Shown here: positions 1,039 to 32,056 of the stretch, in pieces
Numbering within the stretch: the stretch's first letter is position 1
How the letters are laid out: every line of letters begins with the position of its first letter
Virus record (IMG/VR): IMGVR_UViG_2537561603_000002
Direction: 5' to 3' (one strand)
Source of the DNA: a virus
Taxonomy: Duplodnaviria; Heunggongvirae; Uroviricota; Caudoviricetes
DNA: 34,676 bases
The notes under the pieces: model-generated
The model's input: the letters and a program-made list of their open reading frames with translations, nothing else
Database searches by the model: none
Told to the model about the DNA's origin: nothing
Translations under genes and position numbers: made by a program

Positions 1039-1226
1039 AAAAAATGCCCTCCAGTGGAGAGCATTTTTACTGTATGTATAACCAGTGTCAATGTATGAAA
1101 TCCTGTGACGATACATCTCACTGAAGCCATAATGAAGTTGGCTATTCTTTTTGCTATGTGAGTATGTAAATTTTGCGGCTAACCTGCGGCTCATTTTTAT
1201 TTTAGGCGCAGATATAAAAGCAAAAG

Positions 1227-1418
1227 TTATCGTGAGTTTTTAGTACAGATTTTTTTGGATTTACTAATAGTTCCATCATTGCAAACGAATTTGCCATCTG
1301 AGGTACAGTGAGAAACACCTCCCTTTTTCCCTGAGCAGGGATAATTTCTAGCATAGGTAGTTAGTGGGTTTAATAACAAAGAACATGACAAAACCACAAA
1401 AAATACCTTACCAAGCAT
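1227..1418 (-). CDS. Small secreted or lipoprotein-like Cys-rich hypothetical protein (63 aa), AT-rich cargo between int and repressor
   Basis: ORF with N-terminal hydrophobic signal-like segment ([23 protein letters not shown]) and 6 Cys in the mature part; local AT-richness differs from the phage backbone. Confidence 0.4.
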
Positions 1419-1433: not shown

Positions 1434-2090
1434 CTATTTAACATACTTGACTGTTAAACTTATAATTTTACCAATTATTTCAATGTCTTCTATCTTGCAT
1501 TCGAAGGCTCTGTTTCCACCCTCGACGAAGATTCTTCCACCGGGTAAACGAGTAATGTCACGGATCGTTATTTCGCCATCAATACTTATTATCCATTTAC
1601 CATCACGTATATCATCAAATTCTTTATCACAAATAAATTCAGAATTGTTATCTGTGATGACAAAAGGTTTTTTAAACGTAGAGGGTAGAAATCCCTTATC
1701 AAAAATATAAAAACCGTCTTTCTGCAATGCTCCATCAGACAATAAATATTTTTCTACTTCTATAGTATTTGTATTTGCTGATGCTTGCTTTGAACCATGC
1801 CCTGTTGTTAGCCAATTAAGCGAGGTGCCCGTTTCAAGGGCGCACTGGATTACCCAATCTGCTGGAAAAATATCACGCATATAGCGCGTTGCCATGGTGC
1901 TCTTAGAAACACCTAAATGATCACAGAGAGCCTGACGGGTACCGAACCCATATGCTTCAACTAAACGTTCTATGGCTTTCTTACCGCCGCTATTGAAATC
2001 CACAAGTCCTCCAAAGAAATCCAAAATTCGTTGACAGATTCCAAAAGCGATCTTAAGGTTGAACCAGAAGTGTTCTTTTGGAGCCTTCAC
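1434..2090 (-). CDS. Immunity repressor, phage 186 CI-like (HTH)
   Basis: 218-aa ORF divergent from the apl-like gene; helix-turn-helix-like segment (RQALCDHLGVSKSTMATRY) and 186 CI-like flanking motifs (VEAYGFG, CALETGTSLNWLTTGHG). Position between int and the early operon matches P2/186 architecture. Confidence 0.7.
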   Translation of the reverse strand: MKAPKEHFWFNLKIAFGICQRILDFFGGLVDFNSGGKKAIERLVEAYGFGTRQALCDHLGVSKSTMATRYMRDIFPADWVIQCALETGTSLNWLTTGHGSKQASANTNTIEVEKYLLSDGALQKDGFYIFDKGFLPSTFKKPFVITDNNSEFICDKEFDDIRDGKWIISIDGEITIRDITRLPGGRIFVEGGNRAFECKIEDIEIIGKIISLTVKYVK

Positions 2091-5120: not shown

Positions 5121-7531
5121 GCCATGCTGATATGAACAACTGCAGCGGCTTTAACGAGGTCGCCGCAGCATTCTCATGGAACAGCCCGAAAAAGGCCATT
5201 AACCCTTATCTGGACCCGGCGGAAGTTGCGCCGGTTTCTGCGCTTTCAAACCTGATCACTCTGTACGCTGCCGATAACGAGCAGGAACAACTGCGCCGCG
5301 AGGCACTGAGTGATCAGGTCTGGGAGCGTTATTTCTTTAATGAATCCCGTGATCCTGTCCAACGCGAAATGGAGCAGGATAAGCTAATTAGCCGGGCAAA
5401 GCTGGCGCATGAGCAGCAGCGTTTTAATCCAGACATGGCCATTCTGGCGGACGTCAACGCCCAGCCTTCCCATATCAGCAAGCCGCTGATGCAACGTATT
5501 AAATACTTCAGCAGCCTGGGCAGGCCAAAGGCTTATTCCCGCTATTTGCGTGAGACGATTAAGCCATGCTTGGAACGACTGGAGCATGTACGCGACAGTC
5601 AGCTATCCACTTCTTTTCGCTTTATGGCAAGCCATGAAGGGCTGGACGGCCTGCTGATCCTGCCTGAAATGAGTCAGGATCAGGTGAAACGCCTGTCCAC
5701 CTTGGTAGCTGCGCATATGAGCATGTGCCTTGATACAGCTTGTGGCGATTTGTATGCCACCGATGATGTTACGCCAGAAGAAATCCGCAAGACATGGGAA
5801 AAGGTGGCAGCGGAAACCCTGCGTCTGGATGTTATCCCGCCTGCGTTTGAGCAACTTTGTCGGAAAAGAAACCGCCGTAAACCCGTGCCTTATGAACTCA
5901 TTCCGGGTTCGCTGGCGCGTATGTTATGCGCCGACTGGTGGTATCGGAAATTATGGAAGATGCGTTGCGAATGGAGGGAAGAGCAGTTGCGTGCTGTTTG
6001 CCTGGTCAGCAAAAAAGCATCTCCCTATGTCAGCTATGAAGCCGTGATGCATAAACGTGAGCAGCGCCGTAAGTCGCTGGAGTTTTTCCGTTCTCATGAA
6101 CTGGTGAACGAAGACGGCGACACGCTGGATATGGAAGACGTGGTAAACGCCAGCAGCAGCAACCCTGCGCATCGCCGCAATGAGATGATGGCCTGTGTTA
6201 AAGGTCTGGAGCTTATCGCGGAAATGCGTGGTGACTGCGCCGTTTTCTACACCATCACCTGTCCGTCACGTTTCCATTCCACGCTAAATAACGGCAGGCC
6301 CAACCCGACCTGGACAAATGCGACGGTAAGACAAAGCAGTGATTATCTGGTCGGTATGTTTGCTGCATTTCGTAAGGCGATGCACAAAGCCGGATTACGC
6401 TGGTATGGCGTGCGGGTGGCTGAGCCGCATCATGACGGTACAGTTCACTGGCACCTGTTGTGTTTTATGCGCAAAAAAGATCGCCGCGCCATTACTGCTT
6501 TGTTGCGTAAGTTTGCCATTCGTGAAGACCGCGAGGAGCTGGGTAATAACACGGAACCACGCTTTAAGTCTGAGCTGATAAACCCGCGCAAAGGTACGCC
6601 AACAAGCTACATCGCGAAATACATCAGTAAGAACATTGACGGGCGTGGTCTGGCTGGCGAGATCAGCAAGGAAACGGGTAAATCCCTGCGTGATAACGCC
6701 GAATACGTTAATGCCTGGGCGTCTTTGCATCGTGTTCAGCAATTCCGCTTCTTTGGCATTCCGGGGCGTCAGGCTTACCGTGAACTGCGATTGCTGGCTG
6801 GTCAGGCGGCAAGGCAACAGGGGGACAAAAAAGCAGGTGCGCCGGTACTGGATAACCCGCGCCTTGATGCCATCCTGGCTGCCGCTGATGCTGGCTGTTT
6901 TGCCACCTACATCATGAAGCAGGGCGGCGTACTGGTTCCCCGCAAATATCACCTCATCAGAACCGCTTATGAAATCAACGAAGAGCCGACCGCCTATGGC
7001 GATCACGGTATTCGTATTTATGGCATCTGGTCACCCATTGCAGAGGGCAAGATCTGCACTCATGCGGTGAAGTGGAAAATGGTTCGTAAGGCCGTTGACA
7101 TTCAGGAGGCGGCAGCCGACCAGGGCGCTTGCGCCCCTTGGACTCGTGGCAATAACTGTCCCCTTGCTGAAAATTTGAACCAGCAGGAGAAAGATAAATC
7201 AGCTGATGGGGACACCAGAACGGACATTACCTGCATGGATGACAAGGAGTTGCACGATTATCTGCACAGTATGAGCAAAAAAGATCGCCGGGAACTGGCA
7301 GCAAGGTTACGCCTGGTGAAACCGAAACGGCGTAAAGACTACAAACAGCGAATTACAGACCATCAGCGACAGCAGCTTGTCTATGAACTGAAGTCCAGAG
7401 GATTTGATGGCAGCGAGAAAGAGGTCGAGTTGCTCCTTCGCGGTGGCAGTATTCCGTCAGGAGCAGGCCTGCGTATCTTCTATCGGAACCAGCGTCTGCA
7501 GGAGGATGATAAATGGCGGAACATGTATTAA
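5117..7531 (+). CDS. A: Replication initiation protein A (rolling-circle HUH endonuclease)
   Basis: About 804 aa from ATG 5117 (ATGA overlap with dam stop); HUH motif ([13 protein letters not shown]) and downstream Tyr motif ([11 protein letters not shown]) typical of P2 gpA / 186 RepA. Confidence 0.85.
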
Positions 7532-7623
7532 TTACGCTGATTAACAATTCGTGCTCTTAATAATACCAGGCATATCAGGCTGATGAACGTAAAAAAACGT
7601 TTTACATCAGTAAGATTATTATA

Positions 7624-7643
7624 TACTGCAAATATAAACAGTG
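7624..7643. promoter_or_regulatory. LexA box (SOS operator) upstream of the tum/dinI-like genes
   Basis: tactgcaaatataaacagtg: CTG-N10-CAG with an AT-rich spacer, matching the LexA consensus TACTG(TA)5CAGTA, 40-60 bp upstream of ATG 7685. Confidence 0.6.
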
Positions 7644-7684
7644 GTTATGTATACAGTATTGCTTGTGGTGTCATAGGAGGAAAA

Positions 7685-7873
7685 ATGCAGGACTATTTTT
7701 TGGAGTCTTTAAAGCTCCAGCGCATTGATTTTTTTCTTAAGCTTGTAGCGGCTAGTGAGTGTAGTGATGAAGAGAAGGGGCTGGCTTTGCAGTGGGTTTC
7801 TGAACTAACAGATGAACTCATGGCAAAAATCAGAACCCACGAATACAACCGCTCAATGGATGTCATCAGTTGA
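7685..7873 (+). CDS. Small protein in tum position (candidate SOS-induced antirepressor-like)
   Basis: ATG at 7685 with SD aggagg; lies directly downstream of the LexA box in the position of 186 tum. Functional call is positional inference. Confidence 0.4.
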   Translation: MQDYFLESLKLQRIDFFLKLVAASECSDEEKGLALQWVSELTDELMAKIRTHEYNRSMDVIS

Positions 7874-7883
7874 GGTGACTTTT

Positions 7884-8117
7884 ATGCGCATTGAAATAAT
7901 GATCGATAAAGAGCAGAAGATTAGCCAGTCTATCCTGGACGCCCTTGAATCCGAGCTTTACCGCAATCTGCGCCCCCTGTATCCAAAAACGGTAATTCGT
8001 ATCCGCAAAGGTAGCTCTAACGGTGTGGAACTGACCGGACTGCAACTGGACGAAGAAAGAAAACAAGTGATGAAAATTATGCAGAAGGTGTGGGAAGACG
8101 ACAGCTGGCTGCATTAG
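7884..8117 (+). CDS. DinI-family protein (77 aa)
   Basis: MRIEIMIDKEQKISQSILDALESELYRNLRPLYPKTVIRIRKGSSNGVELTGL...KIMQKVWEDDSWLH parallels DinI (MRIEV...; conserved C-terminal W-E-[SD]-x-D-x-W); own SD gaggtg. Confidence 0.7.
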   Translation: MRIEIMIDKEQKISQSILDALESELYRNLRPLYPKTVIRIRKGSSNGVELTGLQLDEERKQVMKIMQKVWEDDSWLH

Positions 8118-8245
8118 AGAACGTTGCGGATGATAAAACTAGCTTTTACCATCTGCAAGGCTGAACAACGATTGTAGCGAGGTGTTAGGTGGTTCAAAAG
8201 TAAAGCGGTTATTTTGCCCGTAAAAGTGAACCACCTGTATCTTGA

Positions 8246-8986
8246 TCAGTTTTCTTTGAATTTTTCACTTAATCGTTTCGTCAATACTTCGACAGATTCT
8301 TTGCGACCGGAGAACAAGTCATTGACGACGTACTCCATAATCTCAAAAGCATCCTCAATGTCTTTGACTTTTACTTCATCGTAGGTATGGCTTCCGGCAT
8401 TTCCTAAAAATTTAATTGCCATAAGAGGTCTTGAAAACGATCCGTATAATTCAGGTAGCATCCCTAAACGGTGGTGTAGAGTTATGCGTTTGCCATTATC
8501 ATTACGTTCAGCTACATCCATAGCGGTTAGCATTCTTTCAACTGAAATTCGAATTAGGTTTGCTGCTGCGCCAGGCTGTATTAGGAAAATGGAAAATGAG
8601 GCTTCAAGCGGTTCGGTAATTTCTTCTGGGCATTTTTCAGGTATTTCGAAAGGATGCAGTGATGGGTAAAAGGTGAAAGGTCTGTGCCATTGATAGTACT
8701 CAATATCATTTCTTTCTTCATCCCAACCTTGTTCCCATCCACTCTTACCAGTACAGGCCACAACTTCACCACATTGCATTCTTGAACAGCGGGCCATGCA
8801 ACTGAAAATAGATGAATCCATTTCTAGTTCAAACCAATCTTCACTGCGGAATTTTCGGGTATCATGTGTGTCATACGAGACGAAACTTTCTTTAATGATC
8901 TGTAGGGTTTTCTGATTGCAGTTAGGGCAGGGCCACTCAACCTGCATATCGTGGAAAAACGCACCAGAGAGCTTGTGCACAGTCAT
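8246..8986 (-). CDS. Cargo hypothetical protein (246 aa): N-terminal Cys-rich (zinc-ribbon-like) region plus C-terminal alpha-helical domain; candidate defence protein
   Basis: Reverse-strand ORF with SD gagga upstream of ATG 8986; CPNC...CxxxCxxxxC...C cysteines; C-terminal region holds an R-x4-H motif (KRITLHH); lower GC than backbone; in the A-to-Q variable region. Confidence 0.55.
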   Translation of the reverse strand: MTVHKLSGAFFHDMQVEWPCPNCNQKTLQIIKESFVSYDTHDTRKFRSEDWFELEMDSSIFSCMARCSRMQCGEVVACTGKSGWEQGWDEERNDIEYYQWHRPFTFYPSLHPFEIPEKCPEEITEPLEASFSIFLIQPGAAANLIRISVERMLTAMDVAERNDNGKRITLHHRLGMLPELYGSFSRPLMAIKFLGNAGSHTYDEVKVKDIEDAFEIMEYVVNDLFSGRKESVEVLTKRLSEKFKEN

Positions 8987-9250
8987 TCTTTGTGTTCCTC
9001 ATTTTTATGATTGGTAGGGATTGTATCTTCATACACGATTACAGTTGCATTAAAGATAAGCCATAGCAAGCTACTGGAAAAGAGACGAAACAGCTGGGCA
9101 TATCAGATGTTTTTTCTTAAGGTAAGTTGTTGTGCATGCCTATACTGCATGAGATTGCATGATCGTTTGAGGATCGTTATTGCTAAGGCCCACCAGAACT
9201 GGCGGGCTTTTGCGTAGAGCATGCAGGTGCATGAAAACAACTACATAAAG

Positions 9251-9280
9251 CGGGCAGGCGTGGCGGGGATACGATTGCGC
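9251..9280. other. Candidate cos (cohesive end) site
   Basis: ggcgtggcggggatacgat resembles the P2/186-family cohesive-end sequence as I recall it (P2 GGCGAGGCGGGGAAAGCAC). Recalled, not verified. Confidence 0.3.
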
Positions 9281-9356
9281 GCAGAAGATTATTATTGGTA
9301 CACTGTCGGTGACTCTCTACGCAGATCTTACACATTAATTTCTAATGGGGCATGCT

Positions 9357-10157
9357 ATGATCTTTCTAAGTCATAATCACCGTGACAAAAGGTTTGTAAG
9401 TGTTATAGCGGAAAAACTAGCAGATGTTTATGGGCGTGATAACGTATTCTACGATTCTTGGTCTATCCAACCCGGAGAGGGTATTATTGACAAGATGAAT
9501 TTAGGAATGGAGAATGTATCGTTCTTTTTCTTTTTTGTCACAGAAAATAGCTTGGCAAGTAACATGGTAAAAATGGAATGGCAAAATGCTTTAATTAAGG
9601 CATCGTCCGGGAAGTGTAAATTTATACCAATACGTTGCCAGAATATATCCTTGCCTGCTCTGCTTACTCAAACGCTATATATTGATCTTTATTCGTATGG
9701 GATCGATGTGGCAATAAGACAAATTATAGATGTCATTAATCAACAAAATACGTATATTCCTAATCCTGAGAAGTATTCAAACCTCTCCTATGATATTAAG
9801 GATGATGATGGGGGTAAGATAGTGAAATTATCAGCAATGGATTTTTTAGAACCAATTGCTGATTTTATGATGATTATGGATAATACAATTAAGCATGATG
9901 ATGTTGTTGTTATGGTCAATGGAGAAAGCTCATTCACTCAGGGGTTTATTGAAAATGCATCTTTAGAAAATGGTATGAAAGTAAGTGGTGCCACTGTTGG
10001 CCTAAATCGGGGGTTAACACCAACGATGCCAATGTATGTTTCTCTTAGGTTAAAGGATGGTTCACCTTTGAATATATTTGCGGTGCTACATCGAGTAAGT
10101 ACCGAGCGTTATGCTCCTATACCACATAAAGCCGATGATGCCTTTAGAGTAAAATAA
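9357..10157 (+). CDS. TIR-domain protein (about 266 aa) with C-terminal domain of unknown function; candidate defence effector or sensor
   Basis: N-terminus MIFLSHNHRDKRFV...FYDSWSIQPGEGI...VTENSLASNMVKMEWQNAL follows the TIR pattern (FxSHxxxD, SW, conserved Glu in a W..E motif). AT-rich; alternative start at 9345; stem-loop terminator downstream. Confidence 0.6.
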   Translation: MIFLSHNHRDKRFVSVIAEKLADVYGRDNVFYDSWSIQPGEGIIDKMNLGMENVSFFFFFVTENSLASNMVKMEWQNALIKASSGKCKFIPIRCQNISLPALLTQTLYIDLYSYGIDVAIRQIIDVINQQNTYIPNPEKYSNLSYDIKDDDGGKIVKLSAMDFLEPIADFMMIMDNTIKHDDVVVMVNGESSFTQGFIENASLENGMKVSGATVGLNRGLTPTMPMYVSLRLKDGSPLNIFAVLHRVSTERYAPIPHKADDAFRVK

Positions 10158-31843: not shown

Positions 31844-31900
31844 TCGTTAAAAAACAGTGCTTCTAACGTCATGATTTTAAACGGCATAAATTTCAGGCAA

Positions 31901-31945
31901 CAAAAAACCCATCAACCTTGAACCGAAATGGCGGGGTTGATGGGC
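31901..31945 (-). terminator. Rho-independent terminator of ybjL (minus strand)
   Basis: Stem cccatcaac (31908-31916) / gttgatggg (31936-31944); on the minus strand it is followed by a T-rich run (complement of aaaaaa at 31902-31907). Confidence 0.6.
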
Positions 31946-32056
31946 TCCACAAAATGGGGACATCAAAGAAAAGCAGTGGCACTAATTAAGACTGATGCCC
32001 TGCGGAAAAGTTCTGCGGTTGTGCAAAAAAATTTCATTTTCAGGGCAACTTCAGTT

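Follow-up and report, generated by a model that had tools for sequence, protein, structure and literature searches.

A probable LexA-controlled operon encoding a Tum-type antirepressor and a DinI-family protein in a Felsduovirus-like prophage of Escherichia coli

Does the short region that follows replication gene A in this prophage make it inducible by DNA damage, and are the two small reading frames within it two genes or the remains of one? Here we present an analysis of this locus (positions 7624–8117) within the window, the whole stretch of 34,676 nucleotides of IMG/VR virus record IMGVR_UViG_2537561603_000002, to which all coordinates refer. We conclude that the locus is very probably the SOS induction operon of an E. 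coli prophage of the Fels-2/DuoHS type (Peduoviridae), repressed by LexA and encoding in ORF1 a predicted antirepressor of the CI repressor and in ORF2 a DinI-family protein. The module itself is not new: it is widespread, has been annotated and published, and has been tested experimentally in other strains in near-identical form. Our additions are small and concern the link between phrog_698 and Tum, the fact that a DinI partner accompanies this family at some loci and not at others, the dual operator in its several forms, and an SOS box in front of int. The features on which the argument turns are the following.

1437–2003, minus strand: gene for a 186-type CI immunity repressor, the predicted target of ORF1 (by homology)
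7601–7606, plus strand: putative −35 element TTTACA of the tum promoter, the equivalent of 186 p95 (by conservation and p95 geometry)
7624–7629, plus strand: putative −10 element TACTGC, overlapping the left arm of SOS box 1 (counterpart of the annotated 186 p95 −10 element TACTGT)
7624–7643, no strand assigned: SOS (LexA) box 1, TACTGCAAATATAAACAGTG, with the core CTG-N10-CAG at 7626–7641 (matrix score 17.5 bits)
7639–7658, no strand assigned: SOS box 2, CAGTGGTTATGTATACAGTA (reverse strand TACTGTATACATAACCACTG), with the core GTG-N10-CAG at 7641–7656 (matrix score 15.6 bits)
7685–7873, plus strand: ORF1, a putative tumA-type small antirepressor gene of 62 amino acids, predicted to form a two-helix hairpin (by homology)
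7884–8117, plus strand: ORF2, a tumB/DinI-family gene of 77 amino acids (Pfam DinI, phrog_189)
8124–8237, no strand assigned: structured spacer predicted to fold into two hairpins, lying between ORF2 and the convergent DUF4145 gene (by RNA folding)

The order of the locus can be read directly from the sequence: the LexA operator comes first, followed by ORF1 (62 amino acids) and ORF2 (77 amino acids); the 20-mer of SOS box 1 begins at 7624, and the stop codon of ORF2 ends at 8117. A spacer of 153 nt separates the end of replication gene A (Pfam Phage_GPA, 2.3e-128), at 7531, from the start of ORF1, at 7685. The module is located at the end of the early region, directly downstream of gene A, and the same order is found in 186, PSP3, Fels-2 and DuoHS. 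A LexA box followed by two small genes after gene A is what the preliminary description had reported from the sequence, and this layout is confirmed (a box of 17.5 bits, and genes at 7685–7873 and 7884–8117). ORF1 has AGGAGG 4 nt upstream of its ATG, and ORF2 has GAGGTG 6 nt upstream of its start, overlapping the TGA stop codon of ORF1. The two genes lie in different frames, with a stop codon and 10 nt between them. Longer open reading frames had been called at 7583–7873 (96 amino acids) and 7812–8117 (101 amino acids); both were rejected as mechanical extensions rather than real genes, since the former would contain the operator and the homologues of the latter start at MRIEI.

On the downstream side, homology to E. 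coli HS and to Fels-2 ends exactly at the ORF2 stop codon. The RNA of 8110–8260 folds with an energy of −46.7 kcal/mol (z −3.9), and none of 200 shuffled sequences folded as well. The spacer at 8124–8237 is probably the end of the tum operon, with a predicted terminator function. Beyond it lies variable cargo, made up of a minus-strand DUF4145 gene and a TIR-domain gene, and then the portal gene; in E. coli HS, by contrast, the cargo after the counterpart of ORF2 consists of two hypothetical proteins, and in 186 orf97 lies downstream in the same operon. Within the operon, a weak terminator-like hairpin (7862–7879) spans the ORF1 stop codon and the Shine–Dalgarno sequence of ORF2. The RNA of the leader and ORF1 is no more structured than its shuffles (z −0.39), and translational coupling or attenuation through this weak hairpin was accordingly given little weight.

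We then asked how distinctive the operator is. The bare pattern CTG-N10-CAG is not rare, with 20 copies in the 34.7-kb window against 9.2 expected, and the window was therefore scored with a 20-nt LexA matrix. This matrix was built from 24 E. coli SOS boxes described in the literature, and its scores are approximate. The top three matches in the whole window were 1068–1087 (23.5 bits), 7624–7643 (17.5 bits) and 7639–7658 (15.6 bits). All three fall within the range of the training sites (13.6–27.4 bits), and the best score in the shuffled window averaged 11.5 bits (30 shuffles). A search for the 20-nt SOS consensus with up to three mismatches returned no match. The two boxes at the tum operon (7624–7658) sit 27–61 nt upstream of the ORF1 ATG, and their cores, at 7626–7641 and 7641–7656, have a single base in common, the G at 7641.

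Conservation of the operator was assessed in a comparative set of 47 loci from different species, each encoding an ORF1 homologue (down to 41% identity), of which 45 were long enough for the comparison. In 41 of these 45 loci the 100 nt in front of the ORF1 homologue hold a box scoring 18 bits or more, against 3 such boxes in 261,140 background positions, and this strong upstream box is kept even though the proteins diverge to below 50% identity. Of the 41 loci, 18 carry a second box at an offset of 15–16 nt and 23 have a single box. Among 120 IMG/VR relatives, the arms of box 2 are conserved and its centre is variable. We infer that LexA binds both sites at 7624–7658. The well-formed LexA box noted in the preliminary description is borne out, at the level of sequence, as a putative operator that overlaps the predicted promoter and is conserved across species.

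As a new detail of sequence, the predicted operator contains two SOS boxes with one base of overlap, an arrangement also seen in colicin operons. There, two overlapping SOS boxes bind two LexA dimers, which results in tight repression of a lethal function (PMC2994835). The likeness lies in the two 16-mer LexA cores with one common base; the downstream genes are unrelated, and occupancy by two LexA dimers is a prediction here. The operators of 186 (27.7 bits) and PSP3 differ in having a single SOS box.

The putative tum promoter consists of TTTACA, a 17-nt spacer and TACTGC, an assignment drawn from conservation and from analogy with p95. About 20 species-level relatives keep TTTACA at a distance of 17 nt before TACTGT, with a freely varying spacer sequence in between. 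When the loci are aligned at the box, TTTACA (TTTCAG in a divergent branch) is found 17–18 nt from TACTGT. The annotated p95 promoter of 186 reads TTCACA-18-TACTGT, with a LexA site overlapping the −10 element, and the same geometry is present here. A consensus promoter scan of 7400–8400 detected no promoter; the tum promoter was missed because the scan demands a T at the sixth position of the −10 element.

ORF1 is the less familiar of the two proteins. It is 98% identical (61 of 62 residues) to ECHS_RS04495 in DuoHS, a P2-like prophage of E. coli HS, and 98% identical to STM2728 of Fels-2, and it matches phrog_698 (3.6e-38), a family of unknown function. It gave no Pfam match. BLASTP against 186 Tum gave no alignment, and a phmmer search of 1.84 billion representative proteins yielded only 66 clusters, all of small proteins that stand alone and none resembling a fused Tum. 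Because these methods are blind to a link between ORF1 and Tum, profiles were compared instead, one built from 28 diverse ORF1 relatives and the other from 29 proteins related to the first 70 residues of 186 Tum. In hhalign the two families align at a probability of 96.5% (E 7.6e-10), residues 2–45 to residues 2–45 and gapless, with the common motifs E-x3-[LI]-[QE]-R-[IV], R-L and C-x3-D-[KR]-E-[LI]-A-L; this similarity is one between profiles of short helical proteins. PSP3 TumA aligns in the same register, to the 186 family at 80% (E 1.4e-5) and weakly to the ORF1 family (E 0.004), and belongs to a different, very divergent branch. The AlphaFold2 model of ORF1 (pLDDT 88) has helices at residues 2–23 and 28–61, for which Foldseek retrieved only generic helical hairpins from the PDB (E ≥0.49). 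PADLOC has no model for ORF1 or ORF2. Pairwise dN/dS of ORF1 against its relatives is 0.04–0.14.

From these alignments, ORF1 appears to be a homologue of the N-terminal half of 186 Tum, of the TumA type. The profile link between this unannotated 62-amino-acid family (phrog_698) and Tum is one of our additions. In the comparison with 186 tum suggested by the preliminary description, ORF1 aligns to residues 2–45 (hhalign) and ORF2 to residues 71–145 (41% identity) of the one protein. The similarity of ORF1 to Tum emerged at the level of profiles, and BLASTP on its own would have spoken falsely against it.

The assignment of ORF2 is direct. It matches Pfam DinI (PF06183) at 1.3e-22 over profile positions 1–63 of 63, scoring 80.4 bits against a cut-off of 24.2, and phrog_189, annotated as 'RecA filament binding protein DinI', over profile positions 71–148 of 151. 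It is 77% identical to PSP3 TumB, and over residues 1–75 it aligns to the E. coli DinI structure (1GHH, E 3.6e-6). Its pairwise dN/dS against relatives is 0.07–0.13. The second gene had been described as DinI-like, and both the Pfam and the structural match bear this out. As judged from its family membership, the most likely role of ORF2 is to bind RecA filaments and to modulate the SOS signal.

The predicted target of ORF1, CI, is 87% identical to the CI of DuoHS and 33% identical to that of 186 over its full length (175 residues, E 2e-38), and shows no similarity to the self-cleaving lambda-type repressors. Its neighbours are an Apl-like gene, CII (Pfam Phage_CP76), a Dam methylase gene and the gene for gpA, with the Apl-like gene and CII being of the 186 type. 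CI, the Apl-like gene and CII are all of the 186/Fels-2 type, as is the early region in its entirety. The proposal of a P2-like backbone carrying 186 circuitry therefore does not hold; by its sequence, this is a Felsduovirus-like prophage throughout. A contact between ORF1 and CI is predicted by sequence and analogy, and we assume that the two proteins found here are paired, CI being 87% and ORF1 98% identical to the DuoHS counterparts.

The best matrix match in the window, the strong, near-consensus SOS box at 1068–1087 (23.5 bits), lies in the int promoter, where it fills the spacer of TTGACA-N17-AAAAAT. The same box is present upstream of int in DuoHS and is absent from 186 and Fels-2.

The experimental anchors for the module come from close relatives, its DNA being 97% identical to E. 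coli HS and to Fels-2. ECHS_RS04495 is the gene deleted as 'tum' of prophage DuoHS in the Phollow study (PMC12055606), in which the tum deletion and lexA(Ind−) each left the prophage without lysis or virions after mitomycin C (PMC12055606). The deletion could also act in a polar fashion on the DinI-like gene, which leaves the contributions of the two genes incompletely separated in that study. In Salmonella carrying Fels-2, STM2726-STM2727-STM2728 acts as one unit, and STM2727 was up 5.5–14.8 fold with the mutagen MX (PMC2225428). [quoted passage not shown] In the PSP3 record itself both tumA and tumB are annotated, the former as 'similar to 5' end 186 tum; UV induction of prophage'.

Set beside these systems, the locus is closest to DuoHS (ECHS_RS04495 and the DinI-like ECHS_RS04500), with which it shares gpA, the SOS boxes, the 62-amino-acid gene, the 77-amino-acid DinI gene and a CI of the same type; the two differ in box 1, which has CTGT in DuoHS and CTGC here, and in the three central bases of box 2. 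Fels-2 (STM2728 and STM2726.1) and PSP3 (tumA and tumB) likewise have a small gene and a DinI-like gene with an SOS box after gene A. With 186 the locus has in common the position after gene A, the overlap of the −10 element with the SOS box and a repressor of the same family. Outside this group, the LexA-controlled antirepressors GfoA and GfhA of the Gifsy prophages follow the same logic: each is a small protein encoded away from the immunity region, in an operon that also has an SOS box and a dinI homologue (PMC3121763). In these operons, however, dinI comes first, and they belong to lambdoid phages with repressors of an unrelated family.

Put together, these data suggest the following course of events. 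In a lysogen, host LexA would occupy the two SOS boxes at 7624–7658, covering the −10 element and the promoter start and keeping the two-gene operon silent. On DNA damage, RecA would become active, LexA would cleave itself and the operon would be transcribed. ORF1 would bind the 186-type CI (1437–2003) and take it off its operators, and the removal of CI would switch on the lytic promoter and, with it, Apl, replication and the late genes. ORF2 (TumB) would act on RecA filaments to tune the SOS signal and would not be needed for antirepression. SOS induction through an antirepressor, as put forward in the preliminary description, is supported by the block to induction that the tum deletion and lexA(Ind−) impose on DuoHS and by the mutagen-induced expression of the Fels-2 operon.

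Two other readings of the genes themselves have to be weighed against this SOS induction operon. That ORF1 and ORF2 are what a frameshift or nonsense mutation has left of a tum gene, and hence a decaying pseudogene in a non-inducible prophage, is suggested by 186, in which Tum is a single polypeptide of 146 amino acids (an antirepressor of CI expressed from the LexA-repressed p95, with additional in-frame short products) covering both parts, whereas here the parts are two cistrons in different frames. Yet the two-gene layout is common to Fels-2, PSP3 and DuoHS, is carried by about one fifth (1124 of 5426) of complete E. coli genomes and is also found in many Klebsiella and Salmonella phages and across genera, and DuoHS, with this very layout, is fully inducible. 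Each ORF has its own ATG and Shine–Dalgarno sequence, and the dN/dS values of 0.04–0.14 across both place the two genes under strong purifying selection. Between species the gap from the ORF1 stop to the ORF2 ATG ranges over 9–12 nt, so that their frame relation is not fixed and they are independent cistrons. Even in the 186-type Tum N-terminal family, stand-alone proteins of 63–78 amino acids dominate. Conservation, dN/dS and the inducibility of relatives thus refute the pseudogene, to which we give practically no credence. The split of tum noted in the preliminary description is real in that two ORFs lie in different frames; it is not a lesion, but the conserved tumA/tumB arrangement annotated in PSP3. 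The other reading would make the operon an accessory modulator of SOS and RecA acting through the DinI-like protein, with ORF1 serving some other function and induction following another route. It draws on the lack of a Pfam family for ORF1, on a PHROG family to which no function is assigned, on the generic hairpins of the structure search and on the 186 record, according to which the short in-frame Tum products 'modulate SOS induction'. Against it, deletion of the 98%-identical DuoHS gene abolishes induction, ORF1 is homologous to the N-terminal half of Tum and to PSP3 TumA, the part reported as antirepressor, and the CI found here is of the 186 type, dissimilar to repressors that cleave themselves. 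The distribution of the genes speaks in the same direction: a DinI gene adjoins the ORF1 homologue in about 21 of the 47 species-level loci, and about half keep the ORF1 homologue and the SOS box without one. The DinI part is fused in 186, adjacent here and absent elsewhere. ORF1 with its SOS box is therefore the constant core and the DinI part an optional partner, and a purely accessory role for the operon is very unlikely.

A further reading accepts the SOS induction operon as present and holds that it is weakened or altered in this lineage by a T-to-C change at 7629, a crippled promoter making the prophage poorly inducible, or a weakened operator making it leakier, than DuoHS and Fels-2. 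Base 7629 belongs at once to the CTGT arm of box 1, as its fourth base, and to the conserved −10 hexamer, as its sixth, so that the change could lower LexA affinity and promoter strength together. The C is rare: box 1 has CTGT in 119 of the 120 IMG/VR relatives and C in one, and the exact 71-mer of the window was found in 16 of 1045 matching E. coli records. It lowers the matrix score of box 1 from the 23.6 bits of the relatives to 17.5, in a hexamer (TACTGT) that is conserved across genera at a fixed 17–18 nt from the −35 element. Nevertheless, at least 16 complete genomes, of human, mouse and wastewater sources, carry the C form, which has also arisen independently in loci from Pantoea conspicua and Lelliottia and is therefore tolerated. 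A score of 17.5 bits is still in the range of real SOS boxes, box 2 is intact, as are ORF1 and ORF2, and the remainder of the prophage looks complete. We consider it unlikely that the module is weakened or altered in this lineage, although repression and promoter strength may differ here from those of the tested relatives owing to the C at 7629. Tentatively, and with rather less than even confidence, we propose that LexA controls induction in the DuoHS-type lineage both at the tum operon and at a dedicated int promoter, with CTGC at 7629 being a natural variant that resets the induction threshold.

The additions made here are useful for annotation and for the tuning of inducible prophage tools, and leave the overall picture unchanged. 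The SOS induction operon predicts that this prophage would be inducible by DNA-damaging agents, including quinolones and mitomycin C, and that induction would proceed via an antirepressor and not via self-cleavage of the repressor. As the module is carried by about one fifth of complete E. coli genomes, it matters for phage release and gene transfer among gut E. coli.

The highest-scoring LexA-box match of the entire window in a matrix scan is TACTGTATGTATAACCAGTG, at 1068-1087 (23.5 bits, an approximate score), which lies upstream of the integrase gene int rather than at the tum operator. Two features occupy this part of the window:

1063-1091, minus strand: putative int promoter TTGACA-N17-AAAAAT, in which the LexA box fills the 17-nt spacer
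1227-1418, minus strand: 63-amino-acid open reading frame (ORF), located between cI and int

The promoter lies approximately 25 nt upstream of the int start (ATG at 1038, minus strand), and int has its own ribosome-binding site, GGAGGG. An identical box precedes int in DuoHS, the P2-like prophage of Escherichia coli HS, and the exact 30-mer was found in at least 120 IMG/VR contigs. By contrast, the box is not present upstream of int in Fels-2 or 186, in both of which int abuts cI. A LexA box that fills the promoter spacer, and that is common to DuoHS, suggests that the int promoter is under SOS control. We found no description of an SOS-controlled int promoter of this kind. The product of the 63-amino-acid ORF has a signal-peptide-like N terminus and six cysteines, and a Pfam search gave no match. 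Its counterpart in E. coli HS (ECHS_RS23290) is annotated as hypothetical, whereas Fels-2 is without one. The ORF of the window appears to encode a small accessory protein that is secreted (a 'moron').

The tum operator, formed by two overlapping SOS boxes (7624-7643 and 7639-7658), carries a rare T-to-C substitution at 7629 that converts CTGT to CTGC. In the conserved -10 hexamer TACTGT, this position supplies base six. A C is shared by just 1 of 120 IMG/VR relatives, and the exact 71-mer of the window was seen in 16 of 1,045 E. coli records; Pantoea conspicua (L145) and Lelliottia (L169) acquired the same change in separate events. The operator precedes ORF1, the tumA-type antirepressor gene, whose family (phrog_698) has no assigned function. 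Among species-level relatives encoding an ORF1 homologue (L124-L170), an SOS box is found upstream in 41 of 45 loci and a DinI gene downstream in only about 21 of 47. At the junction of ORF1 and the DinI-family ORF2 lies one further element:

7862-7879: small hairpin, GTCATCAGTTGAGGTGAC followed by TTTT, spanning the ORF1 stop codon and the ORF2 Shine-Dalgarno sequence

Its stem is kept in E. coli HS and Fels-2. The hairpin is weak, and the RNA around it is not unusually structured; it could couple translation of ORF2 to that of ORF1.

The remaining features are cargo genes that separate the tum operon from the portal gene, and a small RNA gene at the window's right end:

8246-8986, minus strand: DUF4145 protein gene (phrog_1305 match; weak PADLOC match to PD-T7-4, E 1.6e-5)
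9345-10157, plus strand: TIR_2-domain protein gene (weak PADLOC matches to TIR-NLR, PDC-S66 and ThsB)
31899-31977, minus strand: gene for the small RNA RybB, full length (Rfam RF00110, 105 bits)

The presence of the full-length RybB gene means that the window runs, on its right, into host chromosome adjoining the right attachment site of the prophage; rcdA is the neighbour of this prophage in E. coli HS. A conserved translated motif (...HENHYIKRAGVAG; window copy at 9221-9376) recurs downstream in several of the L124-L170 loci, and where it occurs the cargo region probably has a conserved boundary that is non-coding. The genes of this region are variable, being the DUF4145 and TIR_2-domain genes in the window and other genes in Fels-2, DuoHS and 186. 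P2-like phages have a known defence hotspot, and this difference in gene content at one position fits it.
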